A stretch of DNA of 62,104 bases, the filler included, from Dugesia japonica (Eukaryota): assembly GCA_001938525.1 (NCBI GenBank). It is 5 parts of 5 records of this genome, joined end to end, with 100 filler letters (N's around TTAATTAATTAA, not from the genome) between each part and the next. Parts side by side here need not be neighbours in the genome. Positions count along the whole stretch, not along the records: positions 52,492 to 62,104 come from MQRL01619175.1; 4 more parts are not named here. The stretch is one strand, 5' to 3'. Below, in pieces: positions 3,209 to 62,104 of the stretch. Numbering within the stretch: position 1 is the first letter of the stretch; every line of letters begins with the position of its first letter. The notes beneath the pieces were generated by a model. It was not told the DNA's origin, searched no databases, and worked only from the letters and a program-made list of their open reading frames with translations. The translations under genes were made by a program, and so were the position numbers.

Positions 3209-4213
3209 ATGGACAAAATTAAAGCTATATAAACAGATCCTAAAATACCAGCTGAGTTTTAAGAAGTAGAGAAATTATGGAAAGCAACGGAAAGTTAAAA
3301 AGACAAGCCGAAAAAATGGCTATCAGGTCATCTAACTTACAGTCTAAACAAACCAATGTTGAAAATATTTCCAAAAAGACCATATAAAACATTTGGTATC
3401 TATGATTTATGGCAAATGGATTTGATGAAGATGATTCCATATTCAAAAATTAATAAAGGTTACAAGTACATTTTAACATGTGTTGAAGTATTTAGCAGAT
3501 TTGCGAGAGCTTTTCTCATCAAATCGAAATCTGCCAATGAAATGAAATCTGCAATCTGATCAATGTTGAAGAATGAACAACCAAATAATCTACAAATTGA
3601 TTTGTGAAAAGACTTCTACAATTCAAAAGTCAGAAATATTATTTCACATTTCAATATCAATCATTATTCTGTATTATAACAATATAAAGCTGCATATGTT
3701 GAAAAGTTTAATCGGACATTGAGAGATATATTAAAGAAATACTTTGTGCATACATGTAATAAATCTTGGGTACATGGGCTACCAAAATTAATTGATTGTT
3801 ACAATCATTCAAGTCACAATGGTGCGAGACCTGTTAATGTATCATCTGATAACTCAATGAAATTATGGCTTTTGAAACAACAACCAAAAGCCCTTAAAAA
3901 ACCAAATTATAAAATTAATGATCATCTAAGAATATCAAAGATATCAGCATCAACATTCATCAAGAATTTCAATAGTAATTAGGGTAATGAAGTGTTTCAA
4001 ATAGCAAAAATCGATACGAATTCAAATGCAATAATGTATGTGATTAAAGATCATAAAGATAATATCATAGTAAAAAAATTATATGAGCAGGAATTGCAAG
4101 TAATTCCACTTCATACAGTGTTTAAATTAGAAAAAATTTTAAAATCAAAAAGAATTGGATATGAAAAACCTTCTTGGATACTAGCATCTGAATTAGTCAA
4201 TTTAAATGAATAA
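3209..4213 (+). pseudogene. Maverick c-integrase (rve), frameshifted
   Basis: LWQMDLM...NKGYKYILTCVEVFSRFA, KAAYVEKFNRTL, YNHSSH, KKLYEQELQ and a chromodomain-like C-terminus (EKPSWI). Confidence 0.9.
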
Positions 4214-5190
4214 TTTCGATACAATTTTACCAAGCAATAGTTGTCCACTTATTCATTCAGATAATAAAGCTAGTAATTTCAATGCCGAGTTTCAAAATCC
4301 TATTAATTTGATTGGACCATGTTGGATTTTACCTTTATATATTCCAAATTTTCATTTCATAGTAAATCAAATATTGAAGATGGTAAAAATCGAGATGTAT
4401 CAGTAGAATTGTTAATTAAAGTATATAATAATGAAAACCAAATAACTATCATTGCAAATAGTATTCTAAAAGTTAATGGTCTTACCGATTTGAAGATTAA
4501 TTATATACATGATTCATATTTCATAACGTTTGATACTATTTAAAATGCCAAAAGATTTTGATTTAAAAATCAGAGAAACTGGATCAAATGTAAAAATAAT
4601 CTCAACCTTCAATCGCTTAAAAACAATGAATCGTTAGAACCAATTGTGATTAAAGTAACATATTCTGTAATAGTTGAAGAAGAAATACAATTCAAAGATA
4701 ATTAATTACTTTATAGCAAACTGCTCACAAGTATTCGACTCTCTGGTTCTAAACAATAACGAATTATTTCATTTCAAGATGCAAGATTATGCTAAAAGTA
4801 TTAGATTTGATAAAATCCTAACAAAAACATTAGTATTAAAAAGACAAGATATCAAATAATGAATTTAAGAATTACGGGGATGAAAGATGTGAGAATTACA
4901 AAACGTATCAACTATCATGACCAAATGTTTATCTACAGTAATATTGTTGAACCTATAATTGTTGGGGATGTTAAGGTATCTTTGTTAAAATCTGTGTGGT
5001 TAGGGAAATATGGCGATGATAAAGTTGTTCAGATTATAGTCAAGAATCCAATGTATTTACTAGTTTCACTTCATGTATAAACAATATGGAAATCAATATA
5101 AGAGATAATAGTGGAAAATTAATCCACTTTGCTCAAGACTCAAAAACACATTTAAAACACATTTTAGAAAAATCAATGTCTAATCCTGAT
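4206..5190 (+). pseudogene. Maverick minor capsid (penton-like) protein relic
   Basis: N-terminal ILPSNSC...DNKASNF and C-terminal MFIYSNIVEPIIVGDVKVSLLK...PMY...IEINIRDNSGKLIHF, typical of the Maverick minor capsid protein. Confidence 0.8.
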
Positions 5191-5367
5191 ATCGTAGAAT
5201 TATATAGTACAAGTAGAAAATTACCATATTTTGTAGGAAAACAATATGGATCTGGTTGGTTAGAAACTATTGGTAGATTTGCACTACCTATTCTTAAACG
5301 CATTGCTGCAATTAGAATAAAAATAGCACAAGATATAATATTGAATAATGCAAAATTCCAACACTAA
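5175..5367 (+). pseudogene. Maverick core-protein-like small ORF (Q-x-G-x-G motif)
   Basis: LPYFVGKQYGSGWLETIGRFALPILK, between the minor and major capsid genes. Confidence 0.7.
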
Positions 5368-5516
5368 ATGCAAATGCAATGTCTAAATTCAAAAATTTTA
5401 TTTGTTCTCCAGAAGTAACGAAAATAATGCCAAAGAACAACATTAAAAATGATTCCAAACTCAATGGTGCTGGAATAAAACATAGAAATTCAAGCTTAGC
5501 AAGTATACAAATACGA

Positions 5517-6290
5517 ATGAAAGGATATAAAACTATATTTGAAAAATGATTTGTGTATTTTTGATCGTCCTTCTCCTCCAACTGTTATTGAATATGAATC
5601 ATTTGAAGATGTATTTTCTATAAATTACATATCTGAATCAAGAAATGATGTAGAATTTTTTCTAAATGGATTGCAAACAAAATATTTGGATTTGAATGAT
5701 ACTTTATTGTGTGTCCAAGTAAAAGTAGTTGATAAAAATGGATAAGATTTGGATGACAAATCATACGTAGTTCAAAGCAATTACATGTTTTATACTATGT
5801 TCAGAGATGTTATACTTGAATTTAATAATATTAAAATTGAAGGTAGAAATGAAATTCATATTGAAAAAGTATTGATTGAAACAACTTTGAACTATAATAG
5901 AGATAGTAGGAATATTTGTCTTTCTACAATTGAATATAAAGATAAAGAGTATATTAAATGTCTATTAAATCATCAAAACTATTATCTCTCTGTGATTCTT
6001 TGCAACTTGATTTCATGTATGAACTAAAATATCTTATTTCTGGTGGTAATGTTCACATTCGAAAAAAGCACCTACGAAAATGTGTTTAGAGTCAATAAAT
6101 CATGAACCTAAATATGTATTGTTGTATGCACAATTAATGGTTAGATGTGTAAGAGTTGAATCATCGGTACTAGCAAGTCATCAAATTGGATTAAACACTC
6201 AAAATGCAATTTATCCAATAAGAACCAAGGAAATTGTAGCATATGCAATTAGTAAATATTGTACATCGTTTTATAAAGAACAAATCTTTA
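5517..6290 (+). pseudogene. Maverick major capsid protein (F54H12.2-like), N-terminal half only
   Basis: DLCIFDRPSPPT...VEFFLNG...YLDLNDTLL.VQVKVV; LMVRCVRVESSVLASH...NAIYPIR. Confidence 0.8.
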
Positions 6291-6292
6291 TC

Positions 6293-7612
6293 AGATCTCA
6301 ATTATTCCATAGACGAAATGACTATGAAGATCAAGGACATTCCATCATTCGAGAGAAATAATCCAGAATTAGCAATCAATGTCTTTACATACAAAAATGA
6401 ACAAGATATTGTTGATGCATACATTGTCAAGAACTCGTATGTTGATATACTATACAGAAGCAAATACTTGGATAATATTCCAATCAACTTACTCTTACTA
6501 GAAAATAAAAGTAATTATCATTATATAGCAATTACAAATCTGGAGAGATTGCTCAATTTAAGAGATAGAAAAGATGGATTTAGAATACAATGCATACTCT
6601 GGTGCTACAAATGTTTACATAAATTCAGATATCAAAATGGATATGACAAGCAGTTACCCATGTGCAATTCACAAGATAAAACAACAACACATTACAAAAT
6701 GCCATATCAAAAATACTCCGATTTTACAGATTTTTCAAAAACAGTCAGCCCTCCTTTTATTGAATATACTGGCTTTGAGTCAGTGTTAGCTCCCTCAAAA
6801 AGTTATGGAAATATTCATCTGCCAGCGTCTGCTGGTTTAGTGCTTCTAAAACCAAACAGATATATGCATTATAAAGAATTTACTGGTCCAGATTGTATTA
6901 TCAGTTTTTTATAAGTTTTAGAGCTTTTCGTGAAAACCAAGGTTTTATTATGGTATGAGAATGCAAAAGTTCCATTGTCACAGCTATCATATCAACAATA
7001 GAAGAACTTAAAATGCAGCAGAATGTTACTTATGCTAAAAGCCACCAGAAAAATGTGAGAGATCATAGTCATGTTACCAGAAAATTTCTTGGAGCTCGTG
7101 TAATAAATGTAACTTTTCCAGACAGATCCGCAGCATGTTGCCAGTCTTTTCACAATCTCAAAAGATATGACTTCCAGCATGCACGGAAACATGCCATCAA
7201 CAAATTTCCCACATGGAATCTCAATGTTATTCCTCAGACTAGAAAAATTCTCAACACTGTGAGCATTTATTGAATTAGATAATCAGAAAACAGTGTCAGT
7301 TAAATTTTTGGATTCATACCAGTTCCTATTAGCTTCACTGATGACTTCAGCGGCTAATTTAGATTATTCATTCACGAAAACAACATTTTCAACAAAAGTC
7401 ATCAACGAGAAAGGTGTATTTACATATAGACTTGCAAAATCATTTCAAGATCTAAAAGCAATCACGCAGCTACCACTAAAATGGGACAACATTGAAGTAG
7501 AAGAATATGAGGAAGCAAAACAAGTATGAGCACAATACAGTTGCACTAATCTTTTGCAGTATATGCTAATATACATGAAATTAGACATATAACTGCTTGC
7601 CAACTGTGATCT
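6293..7612 (+). pseudogene. Protein-primed B-family DNA polymerase (pPolB), N-terminal/exonuclease part
   Basis: FERNNPELAINVF, HYIAITNLERLL, CYKC, YTGFES (ExoI-like), VRDHSHVT, FHNLKRYD (ExoII), KFLDSYQFL, KGVFTY. Confidence 0.9.
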
Positions 7613-14345: not shown

Positions 14346-15615
14346 ACAATTGAGCAATTAAAATAAACTTTTGATTATAAAATATCTAAATTTAAAAAAG
14401 CTTTAGTTGATCAGTTAAATGACGGCTCAAAAATTGACAATTCAAAGGTCAAGAATATTATTTCACATCTAAAACCAATCATTTTTCTGTATTTTCCCAT
14501 ACAAAGTAGCATATGTTGAAAGAATAAATCAAATATTGAAAGATGAATTGAAAAAGTACTTTGTACATACTAGTGATAAAATTTNGATGCATGTATTACT
14601 GAAAATCATTGACAATTATAACTATAAAAGTCATAAAGGATTAAATAATGCGATACCCATTGATGTATTATCTGATAATTCAATAAAGTTATAGTTACCT
14701 AAACAACAAACAAAGAAAATTAAAAAACCAAAATCAAGATGATAATCATGTTAGAATGGCAAAAAATATCAGCTTCCCGATTCATCAAGAATTTCGATAG
14801 TAATTGGAGTGATGAGGTGTTTCAAATATCAAAAATCAATACCAATCAGAATTCAATCATATATGTGATTAAAGATCACGAGAAAAATATCATTGTTTGA
14901 AAATTCTATGAACAAGAATTACAAATTATTCTCTAACCAACAGTATTTAGAATAGAAAAGATTATCAGATCAAAAGAAATTGGAAAATATAAACAATTAT
15001 ATGCAAAGTGACATGTATATGAAAAATCATGTTGGATATCATCATTTCAACTATTTTACAAATGAACACACTGAATAATTTCTATACTCTTTTACCAAGT
15101 AATAGTTGTCCACGTATTCATCCAGGTAATAAAGCCAGTATTTCATTATTGATTTTCAAAATTCTATTATTTTGGATAGTCAATGAGAAGTAACCTTGAT
15201 GGAGAGTAGATGTAATGTGTAACAGGTGATGATTATGAGCGAAATGTAGAAATTATAATCAACAACAAAGAAAAACATTGACAGTTCCTGATGTTGGTTT
15301 TGAGTTCATTATTAAAAGTTTCTTTTTATTCACATTAAAACATTATGGTCATGTTAAAATATTTAAAACTTTAGGAGATACCAAAAGATTCGGATTTAAT
15401 ACTTTAAAGAATGAAATAGATACTAATTCTATTATATAAAATCAAGACTTTAAAAACAATGACTCAATTGTTGTTATGAAAATAAAATTAGTTTTTTCAA
15501 TAGAAACTAATAAATTCATATCTTTTCAAAACGAATATTACATATCGAATTTGAATCAACTTAGTCGTTTCATTACAAAACAATGTAAGTATTTATTCAA
15601 AATACTATAAAAAAT
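14110..15615 (+). mobile_element. Second lineage-A Maverick relic (ATPase end, integrase C-half, minor capsid N-half)
   Basis: 14500-15180 is clearly homologous to 3680-4320 (e.g. ttcatcaagaatttc.atagtaatt, ttttaccaag.aatagttgtccac). Confidence 0.9.
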
Positions 15616-41832: not shown

Positions 41833-43080
41833 AGTAAATTATATCCTATATTTTGTTTTGATACTTCTGCTCAAGATGATAAATTAGTAATTAATAATGT
41901 AAACATTACTTGTCAGTTAACCAAGGATCCAGAATTAACAATATTATTGTATTGGGTTATATTAAAGGAGACTCATGTTAAATTAAAATTATCAAATTCA
42001 AAGGTAATATATGCAGAGAATGTAAGAGGAGTAGATACTGGTTAAATAATTAATTATCAATGATTAAACGTTGTTAAATAATTACTAATAATTAACCATT
42101 AAAATATTCTAATAAAAAGATCCTAACTACGTTCGGATTTTGTAAACTGTCTTCAATTAAATATGAATGTCCAAATTGTAAAAGAATATTAGGTAAAAAG
42201 AAGAGAGCACGACATAATAAATTGTGTAATGGTGTGAGCGAAGCGAACAACCTCCTAATTAATAATCAATTAATAACTAATGTTCCAATTAATAATAATC
42301 AACTTTTAACTAATCTAATTAATAATCAACCATTAACTAATTTAGAAAATAATAATCACTTATTACCAAATCCAATTGAAGATAAAACTAACCTTTTTTG
42401 CTACGCTTGCTCGGGTTAATACTGGTGGTGACTTACAAAAGTAGAATGAAACTTTTGTGCAAAAGAATATTGATGATTATAATAATACAATCCATAGTTC
42501 AATTAAAGTTAGTTTTCAAAAAGCTAGTAATGATCCAACCAAGATTAAAGAAATAATTACTAATCATAACCAAGTGAATGAAAATTTAAATTTTAAACAA
42601 AAACTTAAAATTGGAGATCGAGTAAGAATTTTTAAATACAAGTATAAATTTGAAAAAGGTTTCACTGCTAAATTGACAAATGAAATATTTATTTTGATGA
42701 AGGATTATCATACAAAACATTTTACATATGAAATAAATGATTTAGAAAAGGAAATGTTTTTGGGGAGATTTTATGATAAAGAATTACAGAAAACTAGTTT
42801 GTAGACCCGAGCGGTGTCGTAGACATTCCACAAAGGGCGAGGGTCTCTAATTGATATTAAATAATAAATAATTTTTTTAACTATGTTTTATTAATAAATG
42901 TCTACTGATAATTTAAGAGAAGTTTCTTGAGAGGGGTCATCAACCTCAACACAAATTTGGAGAAAAAATTCTAGTACATTTAAACACAAAGTATTTGCTC
43001 CTCAATTTTTGATTATTTATTATTGTTTCTTCAGGTTGTGGAAAAAATGTTCTATTGTTGAAAATGTTGTTAAAGGTAAC
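41833..43080 (+). mobile_element. Internally deleted lineage-B Maverick/adintovirus relic (MCP end, ZnF, integrase end, ATPase start)
   Basis: KLYPIFCFDTSAQDDK...ENVRGVD; YECPNCKRILGKKKRARHNKLC; GGDLQK; YNNTIHSSIK...GRFYDKELQKT; SSGCGKNVLLLKML, all colinear with 60050-61920. Confidence 0.88.
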
Positions 43081-44289: not shown

Positions 44290-47200
44290 TTACGAAAAAA
44301 CTATTGAAGGTCCTTCTAAAAGAAAAAATGTTCAAAAAAAGAAGTTATAAATGAAAGTAAGGAAAATCTGAAACAAATTAAAACACAACATGACTTAACA
44401 GATGAAGTTCGTTCACTATAACAGAAGGTGACAGAAATGGAACAAATGATAGCCAGGCTATCCAGAGATATAAAGAATTGAATAAATAGATCTGCAGTGA
44501 ATAACACAAGGACTTATAATGACAGTCGATATAGAAATATCCAAATTAAAGATAGAAAATGCTTTAACTCAGAAAATTTTGGGCATTTTGTAAGCAATTG
44601 TAAAAAACCAATTATGTGTAAAAACTGCAAAAAGGTTGGCTATTTAGATCAATTTTTCAGAATAAGAAATATGAAAATAGTCAGATATAATAATAATAAT
44701 GATAGTTAAAATATGGAATTTGATGAAATCAGATCGATATCAACGAGATCAGAAATGTCCAGCACGGAGACTAATCATGTATTGAATGAAATAATTAAGA
44801 AAAATACGAAACCAAAAGAGGTAATAAAAAATAATTGTCATACTAAAGAATTTATGAATTCAGCTCAATACATCAATGAGCAAGGAGCCATACCAAAGTT
44901 TAAAAATAAAACAAAAACACTGATTTCTGAGAATCACTCATAATTTGCTCAAAATAAGCCTTTGGTCCAAGCGAGAATAAACCAAAAAATGGGTAGCGAC
45001 ACTAATAGATAGTGGGGCAGAATCAAATGTAATGGATTATAATTTATTATGTGAATTGAGAAAAAGTAACATACGAATCAAAATTTTCAAAAAAACAGAA
45101 AGAATGTACTGTGCAAACAGATCGCCCTATGAAAATCGTGTGGGTTGCGAAAGTTGAACTAGTAATGGGAAAAAAAGAATTGGCACTAGAATTTAAAGTA
45201 GTGGAAAACGTTTTCCTATAAATTATCATTGGAATTAAATCGATGAAAACACACAGAATTCAAATTGTGCTACAGGATGACTGTAAATATATCAGGAATC
45301 AAGCTATACCATTTGTCTCAAAGGTTTGTGATGAAGGAGCGGAAAACTAACAATCTGGGAAGGAAAAAGTGAGTTCATCAGAAATGTTTATTCAGACAAA
45401 TTTGAGGTATCTCATGTAAACGGATTGATTGATCGAATCGAAAAAGAAGATGACATTCCTTTACAACATAAAAGAAGGTTAAGAGAGTAATATTAAAATA
45501 TGGTAATATATTTAGCAAATGTCACACGGATATTGGTCATTGTAAAAAACTAAAGCATTACATTTCCACTAAAGAAGAAGCGCCGATTGCCGTTCCATTC
45601 AGACGAATACTGATAGGACTTGAGGATAAAATTGATAATTTAGTTGCAGATTTTTTGAAAAAAGAGATAATCAGGAAAAGTAAAAGCCCACGGAATGCAT
45701 CTTTAGTATGTATCATTAAAACCAATGGTGACATAAGATTTATGTGTCAATTATCGGCAGTTAAAACTAGTCACAATCAGACCAATATATTCAATTCTAG
45801 AAACTTCTCAGCTTTTGATGCACTGGGCGGACCAAAGATATTTAGCGTTTTAGTCTTATCTAAAGGATATCATAATGTCAAAGTAAATGAGACGGATAAA
45901 CAAAAAACAGCATTCTCTACTAGGAGAGGGCAGTATAAATTTAATAGAATGCCATTTTGCCTAAGCTGAGCCCCAGCAATATTTCAATGACTTCTATATC
46001 TGATATTGCAAAATGAAAATTGGGAACAACCACTTACATGGTCAGAACCAAGGTGTTACTCAGATGTGCATTCCTTTATAGTTTTCTGGAACTATTATAG
46101 GAAATTTTTAACAGATTTCGCGTATATCGTTCAACCTTTGGAAACTAAACTGAAACAAGACTAGCAAAAAATAAATGGGAAATACAACAAAAACCAATAA
46201 TTAGGGAGGCTGAAGGAAAAGAAGCATTTAAAAAGATACAGGAACGTCTAACAACATTTTCAGTTCTAGCTTATTCTCTGAAATAAGATATGTTCATATT
46301 AGACACAGCCTAATATTGGAGGAATCTTAAGCCAAATTCAAAATGGAGATGAAAAAGTTATCACATGTACTTCGAAAAATTCAGAATTGAAATATTGTGT
46401 TACTCGTAAGGAATTATTAGCTGTCTACGTTTTTGTGAAACAATTTATGCAATATTTATTGGGTTAAAAGTTTTAAAATAAGAACTGATCATAAAGCATT
46501 ATTGTGGCTAAAAAGCTTGAAAAATCCAAATACATCACAGTATTTTACTTGGATTTAGAGGAATATGATTTTGATATTGAACACCAACCTGGCAGATTAC
46601 ACATAAATGCAGACTATATGAACCGACCGGAATGTGAACAATGTGAACTCAGACATAATGAACCAAAGAAAAACGAAGAAATGCGAAACTGATCGAAAAA
46701 TAAAATGATGAGTAGCCAATTATTCGAGTTCTAAAAAGTGATTATACGTCTCAAAGAAAAAAGGAAATAATGGAATATTATCATAACAACATGGGCCATC
46801 CAGGATTTATAAAGACAAAGGAATTAATTCACAATTATTATGACTGGAAGAATATGAGTAAAGGCATAAAATCCTTTATTAATAAGTGCATTCCATGCAT
46901 AAATCGAAAGAATTGAATAGTTTCAGACTACATTTCTGAGAAACATTTTGTAGCTAATGATGCATTTGAAAAATATGCATAGATATCACCGAATCATTAC
47001 CAGAATGTAAAGGCTATAGATAAATTTTAAGTGTGATAGATGTTTTCTCAAGATAGACCATGTTAATTCCTCTTAAAGGCATCAAATCGAGACAAGCAAT
47101 AAATAATATTTTTAAAAGATGGATTGCTATCTTTGAAATGCCAAAAACTATTCCCTCCGATAATGGAAGTCAGTTCAAAAACAATTTCATGGAAGAATTT

Positions 47201-47896
47201 TGTAAAGTTCTTAAAATAAATCAAACTTTTGCAAGCCCTTACTATCATCAAGGTAAGGTAGAAAGAATTTTTAGAAATGCAAAAGATAGAATTTATGCAA
47301 CTAGCTTAAAAATGCTCAAAAATTGGATAGATGCCATTCCATTTGTCGAAATGGCTATGAGAATAACAAAAAATGAAACAACTAATTATTCTCCTTTTGA
47401 AATAGCTTTTGGCAAACAATTTCAAGCTTATNNNNNNNNNGAACAAGTCAACTCGAAAAATCTGGATCAATATTTAGAGACTATTAGAGTAAATTTAGAA
47501 AGAATAAATCAAAATCTAAAAGCAAAAGTGAATGTAATTAATAATAATAACAACCAAATAAAAATTGGCGATATGGTAATGTTCAAATCAGAAAAGAAAG
47601 TAATGTGAAAGAAGCAATATAAAGGACCATGTAAAGTTAAGGAAATATTACCATACGATAATATAACAATGAGTTACAAAGGGAAATTGCTAATTCGTAA
47701 TGTTAATCAAATGACAAGATTTACAATAGAAAAGCTAGAGGAGAAAGGAAAAAAGAGTCTTAAGAACAAAACAATAATAAGCCAATCAAAAATAAGTTCA
47801 ATAGTGAAACCAGAACAATTAACAAGCGAGAGACAAGGAAGAAGAAATCCTACAAGAGAAAGACGTAAACCAACAAGATTCCGGAGATTCGAATAA
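44290..47896 (+). mobile_element. Ty3/Gypsy LTR retrotransposon internal region, degenerate gag-pol
   Basis: Two decayed CCHC knuckles, LIDSGAESNVM protease, RT (KTAFST..GQY.FNRMPF), RNase H (FILDT), integrase HHCC/SDNG/VER; polypurine tract 47898-47908 followed by TG. Confidence 0.92.
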
Positions 47897-50079: not shown

Positions 50080-51600
50080 ATGACAAGTCTTTTTACTGGG
50101 AACCACACCGAAATTAATGCGTTAAAAAGAGCGAAATCCGAAGAAAGTCAAAAGATTTTTTCTAATTTGCCTCAAAAAACCCAAGAAATGTTGATTCCAA
50201 AACCAAGTTTCTTTGATGGTCTCAGTCAAGATGTCGAAGATTGGATGCACACAACGAAAAATTTTGCAACATTCAATCAAATGGAATTTGCTTTCGCGTT
50301 AGATATTCTCCTAAAAGATTATGCGAAACTTTTATGGGAAGAATTTACCTGTTCAAATGATTCTGTTACTAATGAGGAGGTCGAAAAATGGTTTATGGAA
50401 ACCTTTACAAATACAAAATCGATTTATGATAAAGTAAAGGAATTGTCTTCAGTAAAACAGAGAACAGACGAGAAATACAGACATTTTGAGATTCGAGTGA
50501 AAAAATGGTTACAGATGTGTTTCAAAGGAAATTAACCATTGACGAAATTACAAGAGCATTTATTCTGTAAGGATTACAGAGTGAGAAACTACTTGAATCC
50601 TTTGCTTTAGACCCATCAATGTCTGACGAAAGAAGAAGAGAATTTGCAATGAATTTAGAAAAATTGGTTCTGCATTGAAAAGTCTGTCATGAAACCAACA
50701 TATTCGCAAGTGATAAGTAAACCTCGGTATTATAACCAACGTTCAGAAGGGAAGACAAATTTTGAGCACCAAAGGAATTCAGTAAATTTTACATCTTCAG
50801 AAAATAGAAATCAATCTGAAAAATCCACTGCATATAAGAATCGAGATAAAAAATTTTAACAACCGAGCAATAATGAGAATTTTTCTCATCAAGCTATTAG
50901 ACCGCAAAGATCAATGATGAAGATTGCAATGAAATTCTACAATCAGTATAAGGGTAAAGCACCTCCACGTAATGAAATCTTACGACAAGGTGCATGCTTT
51001 TGTTGTGGTAATATGAGTCATAGACGAAATGAATGTCCACTTAAGAATAAATGCTTAATTTGTGGTAAAATGGTCATTATTTCAAAGACTGTTATTTGGT
51101 CATCAAAATGGAAGAATACCATGTATTCATGACGAAGAGCAAAGTGCAGACGAGATGAATAATTTAGATGAAATCCATGATATTGGTCATAGCGAAATGG
51201 ATGGGCGGCAATGGAGTATTATGAATTCTAATGCTGTGATATTGAAATGTTGTGGTTTTCTGGAGCATCAATAACAGTAATGAGTGAAGAAAATTGGATC
51301 TGAATTGGTGCACCTAGTATGATAAAGTCAGAAGTTAGATTGTCAGGTGTTTTTTCTTCAAAGCATAAATCATGTCTTATACAAATTTTATGGAAAAATA
51401 AACCTTTGGTGAAAGAAATTTTGGTTGTTAAAAGTATTTCTCCTGGTTTTATTGGTGGAGTCGATATGATAAATTATGTGGTGTATTCTTGACAGAAGTA
51501 AAGTTGATTGATTCTTCTGAAGTAAATATAAGATATAGAGATTATGATCGGGTTAAGACGACATTAAATTATGTTGCTGGCAGAACTCCATTTATTAAAA
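50080..51600 (+). mobile_element. Gypsy gag (+ decayed protease) relic
   Basis: IPKPSFFDG..QDVEDW capsid motif; knuckles CFCCGNMSHRRNECP and CLICGK.GHYFKDC. Confidence 0.8.
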
Positions 51601-54269: not shown

Positions 54270-55010
54270 CAGAAACTGATCTATAAATAAATGTTCTTTT
54301 TTTTAAAAAAAAGTCAACAAATTATTGCTAACACATCACCCAAAACAGAATTATGTAGTACATTGGAGATTGCTCCAAATGTATCTAAAATTGGGTGTGC
54401 AAGTAACAAAAGTGCATAGAGCAATCAAATGTGCTCAGGCCTCAATTTTGAAGAAATATATAGATGTAAAAAAGATTTGAGAGCAAAGAGCAAAACCAAA
54501 TTGAAGAAAAACTATTACAAGCTATTAAACAATAGCTTGTATGAAATGTCTGTAAANNNNNNNNNNNNNNNNNNNNNNNNNNNNNNNNNNNNNNNNNNNN
54601 NNNNNNNNNNNNNNNTAAAAAGCATCATTCAGACGAACAATAAAAATTGATGATATCTTAATAGCAGTTCAACTCAACAAGAAGATTGTTTGCTTGGACC
54701 GACCAAGCTATATTGGTCAAACAATACCTAACTTGAGTAAACTGAGAATGTACCAGCTACAGTACATCGAGCTGGAAAAGTATTGAAAAGAAAATTGTAT
54801 AATAAATATAGTTGATGGAAACACTGACAGCTTCTTTTTGAAAGTCAAAGGAAATATAATCAGAATCGGATTGCTGGACACCTCAAATTACAGCTCAAGT
54901 CACTTATTTTACTTATTGAAACAAAATTCCGTAATTGGAAAATTCAAGGATGAAAGTAAAGGGAAGAAATATCGCGAGTGGATATTTCTAAAGCCAAAAG
55001 TGTTATAACC
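54270..55010 (+). pseudogene. Maverick pPolB, C-terminal polymerase domain relic
   Basis: KQNYVVHWRLLQMYLKLG...YKLLNNSLY, RPSYIG..I.NLSKLRMY, GNTDSF (DTDS), LDTSNY, IGKFKDE, LKPK. Confidence 0.9.
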
Positions 55011-57615: not shown

Positions 57616-57622
57616 TATAGGT

Positions 57623-57831
57623 ATATGTGAAACAACCCTAAATTACCAAGGGTTTTTTGGCGATTTCACCAAGGGTTCTAAATTTAATATTAGCCATGTG
57701 AATATGTGAAACAACCCCAAATTACCAAGGGTTCTAAATTTAATATTAACCATGTAAAATGTGAATATGTGAAACAACCCCAAATTACCAAGGGTTCTAA
57801 ATTTAATATTAACCATGTAAATGTGAATATG
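57623..57831. repeat. ~62-bp tandem repeats at the left border of the lineage-B element
   Basis: ATGTGAATATGTGAAACAACCCCAAATTACCAAGGGTTCTAAATTTAATATTAACCATGTAAA x2 plus partial copies. Confidence 0.9.
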
Positions 57832-58791: not shown

Positions 58792-58947
58792 ATGACTATT
58801 GAGATAAAAACAAAAGATTTAATAAGTTTTATAAATAACACAACAAAATTAAATGCAAAAATTATAAGTCAAAATACTATAATTGACTTTTTACTTTTTA
58901 TTTCACTAATAATTTTAATTTTTATCTTTATAAAATGGGCACTATAG
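58792..58947 (+). CDS. 51-aa single-pass membrane peptide
   Basis: MTIEIKTKDLISFINNTTKLNAKIISQNTIIDFLLFISLIILIFIFIKWAL*; starts at TAA-ATG and overlaps the MCP start. Confidence 0.6.
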   Translation: MTIEIKTKDLISFINNTTKLNAKIISQNTIIDFLLFISLIILIFIFIKWAL

Positions 58948-60262
58948 ATTTAGATTACAACGTTGAATTTTCACATACAGCAATTAAAAATGATATACTT
59001 AAAATTTCTCCATCATCAGGTTCAATAAACAATTTAAATGCAAATGGGGATATTGTATTTCAAAGTCTACAATCTACGAATCCATTAGACATTTGCAATT
59101 CATTATTATACTTCAGAATTGAGATTACGGCAGATCCAACAAAAATAACCCTAGAAAATAATTTCTTTCCAAGTTTATTTAAATTAATGAGATTAACACT
59201 TGGATCTACTCATATAGAAACAATAAACGATCCAGGTGTAATTTCAACAATGTTAAATTTTATATCTACCACTGAAACCTATAAAAAAGAATACGGACAA
59301 TTATCAGGTTGGATACCAGATACGAAGGTGACACAAAGAATGAAAGTTGTGTTGTTAGAAAGAAACTTTATAAATCACGAAAATTTGAAGGTTATTTTCA
59401 ATTAAGAAATTTATTTGGATTCATGCAAAATTATAATCGACTTTTATATAATACAATGATAGAATTTACATGCAACCGTCAAATAGAAGATAAATTAATA
59501 TTCTACGGCGATAAAGATACAACAGCAACATTAAAAATAAAAACACTTGAACTTCACATTCCAGAAGTAAGATTATTACCAAGAAATGAATTAATTCTTC
59601 TAGAAAGAATAGCAACAAATAAACCAATTAAAGTTACATTTTTAAATNNNNNNNNNNNNNNNNNNNNNNNNNNNNNNNNNNNNNNNNNNNNNNNNNNNNN
59701 NNNNNNNNNNNNNNNNNNNNNNNNNNNNNNNNNNATTTGCATAAAAGATTCAGAAATATCTTATCAAAAGAATAATAATTTATTTATACAAGGATCATAT
59801 AAAACTATTACAAAAACTGTTAAAGAAACAGATACAACTAAAACACCACCAGTTGAAAAAGATGTTGTAAAAGAAGAAAAAGTATATTCATGTTTAAAAG
59901 GAATACAACTTCAATTAAATAATACTTATTATCCAATCAATGAATGTAAATTTGATATGAAAGAAAATGAAATGGCTTATCCATACATGCAATATATAAA
60001 ATGTTGTAATGAATTTTTAACAGAACCACAATTATCATTAATGGATTTTAAAAAATTATATCCATTGTTCTGTTTTGATACATCTGCACATGATGATAAG
60101 ATGAATATTAATAATGTTGATGTAACACTTCATATTACAAAAGATTCAGATTTTCGCGGAACTCTTTACTGGTGTATTCTAGAAGAAAAACATGTTGAAA
60201 TGAAACTTGCCAATAATAAAATTGTTTTAGTAGAAAATGTAAGAGGTATTGATATAAAATAA
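58935..60262 (+). pseudogene. Major capsid protein (double jelly-roll, adintovirus hexon-like), one frameshift near 59325
   Basis: LNANGDIVF...LENNFFPSLF..MRL.LG...IETI..PG..ST; LRNLFGFMQNYNRLL; QLQLNNTYYP; FKKLYPLFCFDTS. Confidence 0.85.
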
Positions 60263-60271
60263 ATATAGGAA

Positions 60272-61639
60272 ATGAACGAAGTCCATAAAGGAGAAAAAAT
60301 GACTAAATTCATATGTGACAATTGTAGTAAAGTATTATTAAAAAAGAATAAGTCAAGACATTTAAATTTATGTATTAATATCAAAAACCACAAGGGCAAC
60401 AAAGGTGGAGATTTACAAAATTCAAGTGTTATATCTAAAATTTTAAAACCAATTACAACAGAAAAATATCCTGGAGAACGTCATTTATTTAAACATAATT
60501 ATACTGGTCCTGGAACTAGATTAGATATCCGATTAGATTCCGAAGGTAACCCAAAACCAGGTGAAGAACCAATTAATAGAGTTGATGAATCTGCATTAAA
60601 ACATGACATTGCGTATAATTCTGAAGATCTACGCGATCGTCATATAGCCGATATTAACCTAATACATGATCTTAATAATATTCCAAATCCAACAACAACA
60701 GAAAAATTTCAAAGAGCTCTTGTAAAATTAGCTATGAAAGGTAAAATAATAATTGGTCAGGGAACGAGCGAAGTGAGCCATAAAGGCAGAAGAAAAGATC
60801 CATATAAAAAAAGCAGGGTAATTAAAGATGAATCTGACTCCGAACATGATCCCAGTGAAATTAAAAGTAAAGAACTTCACAAAGATATAAAAAAACCTAA
60901 ATATTTTAGAAAAGTCATTGTTTATTATAAAGATGAAATTTGGTCCGCTGATTTAATATTTCACGGAACTGAAAAAAAAGGTAAACATGTAATATTAACA
61001 GTAATAGATCTCTTTACAAGATTTGCATTTGTTAAATTAACAGATGGAAAAACCGGTCCTAAAATTACAGAAGCATTTAAAAGTATATTAACTGATAGTA
61101 AAAGAACACCAGAAAAATTATGGGTTGATGAAGGTAAAGAATTTTATAATAAAGATTTTAAATCTTACTGTAAAGAAAAAAATATTGAAATCTATTCTAC
61201 TGAAAATCAAAGTAAAGCTGTTGTAATCGAAAGATTCAACCGTAGTTTTAAAAACAGGCTTTTTAAACATTTTACTGCCGTTGAAAATCAAGATATCACA
61301 CAAGAATTATTAGATAAAATTGTTAAAGAATATAATAACACAGTACATTCTACTATTAACATTTCACCTCAAGAAGCAACAAATAATCCTAATGATGTAG
61401 AAACTGCCATGTTAAAACCTCACAAGGAAAATGTAAAATTTAGAATTGGTGAACGTGTAAGAATAACTAAAATTGGAAAAACATTTTCTAAAGGTTATAC
61501 ATTTAAATGGTCTAAAAGAATTTATATCATATCAAAAATATATCACTAGCAACCTATAACATATCAAATCTCAAATCTTAACGGCAACATAATACTTGGT
61601 AGATTCTATCCAAATGAACTTCAAAAAACTATATTTTAA
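60272..61639 (+). CDS. C2HC zinc finger - parvovirus-type phospholipase A2 - rve integrase fusion (premature TAG at 61547; reading frame continues to 61639)
   Basis: CDNC...RHLNLC; HNYTGPGT...PINRVDESALKHDIAY...RHIAD; WSADL / VIDLFTRFAF / WVDEGKEF / IERFNRS; post-stop QPITYQ...GRFYPNELQKT. Confidence 0.92.
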
Positions 61640-61649
61640 ATTTAGAAAA

Positions 61650-62104
61650 ATGTTTGTTACAAATTCGCAGAAAAGCAGTGTTACAAATTCTCAACAACCA
61701 ACACAACCACAAGGGCAACAAGGACAAAAAAGCAAAATCGCAGAAAGCAGTGTTTCAGATTCGCAACAACCACAAGGGCAACAAAAAAGCAGTGTTTATA
61801 TTTGGAATAATAACATTACAAAATTTAATAATAAAATCCTTCCAAATAATTTTAGATTATTAATAATTGGATCTTCAGGTTCAGGTAAAAATGTATTACT
61901 TATGAAAATGCTACTGACACCTGAATTCTTAGATTATGACAATTTAATTATCTACTCAACAACAATTAATCAATTTGAAATTCAATTGTTATATCTTGGA
62001 TTAGAAAGTGGTCTTTCAAAAGAAGAAATTAGTTTAATATTTCAAAAGCAAAATATAATCCCTAAACATTTAAATACTCCAAATGAAGTTATTAAATTTT
62101 TCAT
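61650..62104 (+). CDS. FtsK/HerA (A32-like) packaging ATPase, 5' part
   Basis: Frame open from ATG 61650 to the window end: Q/S-rich repeats, then ILPNNFRLLIIGSSGSGKNVLLMKMLL..EFLDYDNLIIYSTT (Walker A). Confidence 0.88.
   Translation, partial: MFVTNSQKSSVTNSQQPTQPQGQQGQKSKIAESSVSDSQQPQGQQKSSVYIWNNNITKFNNKILPNNFRLLIIGSSGSGKNVLLMKMLLTPEFLDYDNLIIYSTTINQFEIQLLYLGLESGLSKEEISLIFQKQNIIPKHLNTPNEVIKFF

Follow-up and report, generated by a model that had tools for sequence, protein, structure and literature searches.

The window, that is, the whole stretch of 62,104 nucleotides of Dugesia japonica DNA that was analysed, contains a gene in which a leader, a parvovirus-type phospholipase A2 (PLA2) and an rve integrase follow one another in the same frame on the plus strand. 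This frame was open from 60272 to 61546 (425 aa) and through both junctions, in agreement with the first-pass annotation, which had joined a zinc finger, a PLA2 and an integrase. The same annotation had described one uninterrupted frame from 60272 to 61639 and a complete DDE integrase, and these two points had to be corrected. A stop codon at 61547-61549 cuts the frame and is followed by 29 further codons and a second stop at 61637-61639. Since the 29 stranded codons matched the C-terminus of 97 of the 120 homologs described below, the first of these stops is premature and falls in the C-terminal domain of the integrase, which ends 29 codons short of the family's end, though the triad D227/D286/E320 is present. 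The features of the gene and of the element around it are collected in Table 1.

Table 1. Features of the fused gene and of the surrounding element, in positions of the window.
Feature	Position	Strand	Basis
Tandem 56-63 nt repeats, possibly sub-terminal repeats of the left end	57617..57827		Repeat search
Two small ORFs, 171 aa (with a run of N) and 118 aa	57918..58791	+	ORF scan
Double-jelly-roll capsid gene, split	58935..60262	+	PF21738, E 3.8e-8 and 0.0049; tblastn to L001/L003 capsid proteins
Leader with Cys/His zinc-finger-like motif (C15, C18, H30, C34; 60314-60373)	60272..60409	+	Sequence
KGG/D, predicted protease site 1	60401..60412	+	Sole GG of the protein
Parvovirus-type PLA2	60410..60763	+	PF08398; YTGPG 60500-60514, HDIAY 60602-60616, D127 60650-60652
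K-x-x-h-G-x-G (IIGQ/G), predicted protease site 2 and natural PLA2 end	60749..60763	+	K158, G162 invariant
In-frame linker, predicted disordered	60764..60868	+	pLDDT <50 at residues 163-196
Polinton-type rve integrase, C-terminal domain truncated	60869..61546	+	PF00665; D227 60950-52, D286 61127-29, E320 61229-31
Premature stop and 29 stranded codons to the family's usual end	61547..61639	+	Match to homolog C-termini
A32/FtsK-type packaging ATPase, 5' portion, cut by the window's end	61614..62104	+	Pox_A32, E 5e-4 (below cut-off)

The HMM scan proposed at the first pass placed Phospholip_A2_4 over residues 71-136 (E 5.4e-8) and rve over residues 221-310 (E 3.8e-9), both above the curated cut-offs. 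The residues named for the PLA2, YTGPG (77-81) and HDIAY (111-115), were confirmed, and the module borders KGG/D (44-47) and IIGQG (160-164) were found where they had been drawn. The C2HC finger was retained only in part: C15, C18, H30 and C34 are present, but no zinc-finger match passed the Pfam cut-off (best E 0.04) and the motif of the closest relatives is C-x2-C...H-x5-H. Judging from the sequence, the leader may bind metal or DNA, and the fusion protein would have PLA2 enzyme activity. In a 34-sequence alignment G79, P80, D112, Y115, D127, K158, G162 and the DDE triad were invariant. No chromodomain was detected after the integrase, and the frame read through the stop ends where the homologs without a chromodomain end. 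An in-frame heptamer scan of 60400-60900 gave no slippery heptamer in the linker and the integrase is in frame, so programmed frameshifting was rejected for the linker of this copy.

The fused gene is positioned between the capsid and ATPase genes of an element with the hallmarks of the Polinton/Maverick class (Polintoviricetes), namely an rve integrase, a PF21738 capsid and an A32/FtsK ATPase. By tblastn, the ATPase fragment matched the ATPase of locus L001 (E 7.6e-12), which itself passes the Pox_A32 cut-off. The two small ORFs had no Pfam match above the cut-off; their position and shared depth suggest that they belong to the element. A PolB remnant is present at 54310-55002, beyond the putative left end. 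The element continues past the window, which ends inside the ATPase, and neither a protease gene nor a minor capsid gene was found in the window by tblastn. Considering the premature stop and the split capsid gene, the Dugesia copy is broken, and it is likely a dead Polinton, an ordinary decayed insertion. The organism carries the element family in abundance: from two runs, about 20,700 and 21,400 contigs aligned to the element. Among the 40 differences listed there was one indel in the linker, at a depth of 67/620 and 45/690 (about a tenth), and no aligned contig piece covered the whole junction. Regarding RNA, which was to be followed across the junction, 102 of 13.6 million and 1 of 11.6 million poly(A) reads aligned to the element and none did so at 95% identity or above, so that this copy shows no expression in the two runs.

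Contig joints 60757->61734 and 60784->61705 (two runs) bypass the integrase, and by arithmetic both would fuse the PLA2 in frame to the ATPase ORF; one of them falls exactly on the Gly of GxG. They are a weak lead, with 1-2 contigs each and a short side of 19-24 letters. The depth over the PLA2 (60426-60733) was about 3 times that of most integrase bins, depth being no copy number. Further PLA2 genes without this integrase are hinted at in the same organism. Decayed mobile DNA is plentiful in the window. At 3299-7604 there is another Polinton, in heavy decay, with an integrase at 3344-4012 (E 7e-43) and remnants of PolB at 6294-7604; upstream of this integrase no PLA2 was detected. Further integrase fragments, the PolB remnant mentioned above and an ORF that we take to be possibly gag-like, from a retrotransposon, are distributed over 14500-14793, 42448-42711, 46997-47608, 50080-50535 and 54310-55002.

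A protein search gave 559 hits, of which the best 120 were examined, the domain calls being made with profiles from 34 sequences, 33 of them among those hits. PLA2 and integrase were both present in one frame in 100 of these 120 homologs, which makes the fusion a conserved family. One homolog is named, from the coral Oculina patagonica; among the members listed in 10 clusters of in-frame forms, none is named in the databases (0). In a cluster of 114 members, 6 of the 15 listed are 382 aa long. The integrase is about 30-50% identical to other Polinton integrases. Leaders of the 120 were C4/DUF5679-like in 46, C2H2/C2HC in 10, short or none in 22, other in 15 and not scored in 27, and a leader rich in lysine and arginine was seen in the three nearest stand-alone PLA2s (70-72% identity). 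By these comparisons the leader is interchangeable. A search for longer fusions returned 2 hits, neither with both domains. In the integrase tree, built from 154 rows of at least 150 residues with a subset of the 120 proteins and with shorter loci left out, the window's integrase is on a long branch (SH-aLRT 91), next to 39 in-frame fusions that form a clade and whose aligned members end without a chromodomain.

The set of loci (n=88) consisted of 8 viral loci and the best 80 of 495 confirmed metagenome matches. PLA2 was directly upstream of the integrase in 72 of the 88, and the remaining 16, several of them cut by contig ends, had none; considering these 16, the fusion is not required by the Polinton class. 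By frame, 36 of the 72 were open in frame, 14 were in the same frame with a stop, 18 were in -1 and 4 in +1. The corresponding counts for the 45 loci without stops or shifts in either domain were 26, 2, 16 and 1. For loci of at least 3 kb, another Polinton gene was present in 24/25 in-frame loci and in 5/5 of the slippery-site loci described below, and PolB was found beside the fused gene in 5/25 and 3/5, respectively. A protease-like gene was seen in 12 and a minor-capsid-like gene in 11 of the 25 in-frame loci of this size, labels for which the Pfam matches are weak or absent; for the protease-like ORFs in L001 and L003 there was no Pfam match at E 0.05. L053 and L003 have the fused gene and a protease-like protein in the same element. 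A viral scan from the PLA2 side gave 18 loci, with an integrase directly behind the PLA2 only in L003, and a second viral scan with frameshift-class integrase queries gave no new fused locus.

The AlphaFold2 model obtained from the 34-sequence alignment (mean pLDDT 76.5, pTM 0.46) was formed by two confident domains and a low-confidence linker at residues 163-196. This model matched retroviral integrase cores, among them that of HTLV-2 (E 9.6e-10, rmsd 2.1). The PLA2 modelled alone reached a pLDDT of 87; the best two of 48,161 chains for this model were rice and bee-venom PLA2, with modest Z values of 6.9 and 5.7, and in a BFVD search entomopoxvirus and densovirus PLA2 domains came out on top. 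The model search pointed to a secreted-PLA2-like helical fold, and in the model the final helix of the PLA2 reaches the GxG motif. Structure prediction, one of the checks suggested earlier, was consistent with a PLA2-type fold and a retroviral-integrase-core fold with a disordered linker between them.

Among homologs with enough upstream sequence, 66 of 73 full-length ones and 71 of 93 short ones had a GG located 10-45 residues ahead of the Ca loop. Behind the PLA2, the K-x-x-h-G motif was present in 94 of the 120 homologs, with GG or GxG in 90 of the 94; the background was 13 GG and 4 GxG in 1082 integrase windows of 23 residues each. The second border had been described at the first pass as fitting the adenain consensus. 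IIGQG does match it strictly, and it is the only strict adenain site in the window's protein, but the aliphatic P4 is kept in only 9 of the 94 homologs. As a family rule, the strict consensus (M/I/L)xGG/X or (M/I/L)xGX/G was rejected on this count, and the rule that describes the family is the mavirus-type substrate motif GG/X or GX/G, which appears at both PLA2 borders (66/73 and 90/94) as predicted sites. In the available text of PMC6048507, the mavirus protease cuts GG/X and GX/G, two further GXG sites in the mavirus capsid protein are uncut, and the virions hold an rve integrase and a predicted lipase in two fragments with a potential GK/G site between them.

Many stand-alone PLA2 genes end at the GxG or just behind it, and some end exactly there; considering the latter, the motif could be structural and not a cut site. 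In P0162, L101 and L103, which are of the PLA2X type, basic, GG-punctuated peptides continue after the GxG. The stand-alone, PLA2X and fused forms taken together point to one PLA2 module with three tails: none, protein-X-like peptides and integrase. No C-terminal protein-X-like domain was found in the window's gene, in which a linker and the integrase follow the PLA2, and among homologs the length and sequence of this linker vary freely. As separate observations, a stand-alone PLA2 of a larger virus contig (L097:6916-7482) starts behind a GG and ends at GGG, with no integrase detected, and nine viral contigs of 3.3-3.5 kb (L089-L096, L099) carry a related PLA2 and no integrase. The PLA2 start is without ATG in eight of the nine, and L094 has two further ORFs.

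The most valuable result comes from the relatives of the gene, in which a programmed -1 frameshift likely carries translation across this junction. An A_AAA_AAC heptamer, in frame and with both frames open, was found 3-15 codons behind the GxG in 12 of the 18 -1 loci (being related, the loci are not independent trials), the background being 4 in 18,761 integrase codons. An in-frame ATG ahead of the conserved N-terminal motif of the integrase was absent in 12/12 of these slippery-site loci. Identity among their integrases is 46-90% (median 56), and they are dispersed over the tree, where the frameshift label changes 7 times, at least 4 of these changes being forced by well-supported branches. 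A hairpin behind the heptamer had a z of -2.9 to -5.1 within 60 nt in 7 of the 12, the in-frame controls (n=36) having a mean of 0.07; a long stem at 90 nt, without a z-score, was seen in 2 more loci, and the structure was weak or unclear in 3. Counted at 60 nt, 5 of the 12 slippery sites have no strong hairpin. When the 9 stem loci were aligned, the heptamer was invariant and the stem began 5-7 nt behind it. A_AAA_AAC is missing from 6 of the 18 -1 loci and occurs also in 4 of 36 in-frame loci, from a single clade in which many members are broken; decay is the likely look of the 4 +1 loci and of part of those 6. An S-K-N tail was not enriched in short homologs over fused ones (KN 7/93 vs 9/100); the query there was the window's in-frame-type PLA2, and the result does not bear on the frameshift class in either direction.

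At the first pass, a frameshift between PLA2 and integrase in other copies had been regarded as the sign of a fusion private to a decayed copy or of a misassembly. Such an offset does occur, as in the 18 of 72 loci in -1, but as a likely programmed signal, which speaks for the Gag-Pol analogy and not against it. There is also an annotation blind spot, in which annotation splits frameshift-type genes into two ORFs and starts the integrase at an internal methionine; P0115, which pairs with L042 at zero distance on the integrase tree, is an example of such two-ORF calling.

Other slippery sequences were also seen. L088:221-230 has U_UUA_AAA and A_AAA_AAA heptamers and an open -1 integrase frame, and the PLA2 frames of P0185, P0188, P0192, P0196, P0201 and P0206 end in G-[LF]-K-K-x. 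It is possible that L088 and these proteins form a second slippery class. In L046:4470-5738 and L064:7459-8700, which are close relatives of each other, a basic, GG-rich core-like ORF overlaps the next ORF at a -1 heptamer (A_AAA_AAA or A_AAA_AAG). In this second ORF a GGG linker connects a protease-like domain (Peptidase_C5 E 0.003-0.005, below the cut-off) to an rve integrase. The layout resembles Gag-Pro-Pol and has no PLA2.

In retroviruses and LTR retrotransposons the integrase is the tail of a structural precursor, reached in frame or by a -1 shift (an A_AAA_AAC-type site plus RNA structure), and is then released by the element's own protease. We consider it fairly probable that the conserved Polinton gene described here encodes a virion precursor by which the integrase enters the particle, and that this precursor is likely cut by the element's protease. 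The first pass had proposed a single precursor for the delivery of both PLA2 and integrase, with maturation by the viral protease, and the conserved fusion, the flanking GG/GxG, the disordered linker and the contents of the mavirus virion speak for it; the proposal had to be amended, however, in that the copy is broken, the motif is GG/X or GX/G and the frameshift of the relatives is likely programmed. The basic or zinc-finger leader would bind the genome or core during assembly, and an Ulp1/adenain-like protease would cut GG/X and GX/G during maturation. The freed PLA2 could help to breach the endosomal membrane, as in parvoviruses, and the freed integrase would stay with the incoming DNA and integrate it without new gene expression. 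The ratio of lipase to integrase would be 1:1 in in-frame lineages, as here, and many-to-one in -1 frameshift lineages, like that of Gag and Gag-Pol.

We lean, by a small degree, towards a wider interpretation, in which a broad group of Polintons converged on the Gag-Pol solution. The integrase would be the tail of a virion-protein precursor (PLA2, or core plus protease in L046/L064), reached in frame or by a conserved -1 frameshift and freed by the maturation protease, and the particle would arrive ready to breach a membrane and to integrate. If true, this would be a convergence between double-jelly-roll DNA viruses and retroelements. The candidate cut sites and the candidate frameshift signal make it testable by what route Polintons supply the incoming genome with integrase and by what means they keep its amount low.

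The borders of the PLA2 can also be read in a protein that works uncut, an explanation that we regard as unlikely, in which the PLA2 would be a permanent domain of the integrase, for instance a membrane or capsid anchor, and GG/GxG would be hinges or the end of the PLA2 fold. The last helix extending to the motif in the model, the absence of the strict adenain P4 from all but 9 of 94 homologs and the stand-alone PLA2s that end at GxG, where a cut removes nothing, agree with it; it accounts poorly for the GG that also lies ahead of the PLA2 in 66/73, for the same motif linking the PLA2 to protein-X-like peptides in the PLA2X-type genes, and for a linker that is freely variable and predicted to be disordered. 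The fusion might instead be mainly an expression device of a compact genome, in which the integrase is expressed from the promoter and start codon of the PLA2 gene upstream while the products act in the cell at different times and the integrase stays unpackaged. We find this quite improbable, considering that in all fused cases observed the integrase is joined to a predicted virion protein (the PLA2, or the core-like ORF and protease of L046/L064), that the gene is here between capsid and ATPase genes and that, in the available text of PMC6048507, mavirus packages its integrase. Such a device has in its favour that other Polinton integrases have their own start (L050, L078 and L080), and the low, fixed integrase level given by the -1 class would suit a transposon that limits harm to its host.

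An accident of a decayed copy or a misassembly, with the -1 offsets of relatives due to random decay or homopolymer errors, is very improbable. The fused frame as an accident or assembly error is refuted by its presence in 100 of 120 homologs. To this are added the recurrent length of 382 aa in the 114-member cluster, the heptamer that is invariant in 9 aligned loci with its stem 5-7 nt behind, and the single linker indel listed, at about a tenth of the depth, and these outweigh the decayed state of the window's copy, the error-prone nature of A-runs, the decay-like appearance of the 4 +1 loci and of some of the 6 other -1 loci, and the junction that no contig piece spans as a whole.

The fused gene, which we interpret as encoding a virion precursor, is a real and widespread architecture in a known virus class and is apparently undescribed. 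No PLA2-integrase fusion and no Polinton integrase frameshift was found in the literature; RepBase, subscription papers and preprint supplements were outside the search, so this absence is provisional. The earlier remark that the architecture is not a described standard holds as far as the searched literature goes, although precomputed Pfam labels already imply the two domains together. In the available texts of PMC8502044, PMC5803895, PMC3671162, PMC4642659 and PMC11296320, and likewise in those of 10.64898/2026.06.19.733378 and 10.64898/2026.07.28.741253, Polinton PLA2 genes are separate or merely present, and the available part of PMC4642659 proposes that Polinton lipases are packaged and aid entry. 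The accessible text of PMC8502044 describes no fusion, and its gene maps may show fused genes. No fusion is mentioned in the portions at hand of PMC11161782, PMC11131425, 10.1101/2023.08.22.554363, PMC4061559, 10.64898/2026.10.13.758929 and PMC9683012.

Among the known systems that come close is PLA2X of the Alpha adintoviruses / group 2 Maverick-Polintons, described as a gene of its own whose product has a protein-X-like domain at the C-terminus (PMC8502044, available text); a gene of this type is called 'CAP' in Sf Mavericks (PMC5803895, available text). Both have a parvovirus-type PLA2 with Ca loop and HDxxY and are found among virion genes, and the PLA2X-type L101, L103 and L104 show a GG before and K-x-K-h-G-x-G after the PLA2, like the fusion. 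They differ in what follows the motif, which is the integrase here and the protein-X-like domain in PLA2X. The Polinton/adintovirus integrase, described in the available text of PMC11071296 with a C-terminal chromodomain, shares with ours the DDE core and the N-terminal ELH motif; in contrast, ours has a leader and a PLA2 fused N-terminally and belongs to a lineage without chromodomain, and the window's copy is truncated.

Mavirus offers the likeness of a virion with an integrase (MV02) and a lipase-like protein (MV13) and of a protease, MVP, specific for GG/X and GX/G, but MV02 and MV13 are separate genes and MV13 is a predicted alpha/beta hydrolase, not a PLA2; the available text of the same paper (PMC6048507) reports no frameshift. 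In adintoviruses, -1 frameshifts are predicted for Penton isoforms and Hexon-Adenain fusions only, and not for PLA2 or integrase, in the available text of PMC11071296, so that read-through at a slippery site is already proposed in the same virus group. With respect to Gag and Gag-Pol, the resemblance is in the integrase as the tail of a virion-protein precursor, and the differences are a DNA virus with a double-jelly-roll capsid, a cysteine protease and no reverse transcriptase, and a carrier that is a minor membrane-active protein and not the main capsid protein.
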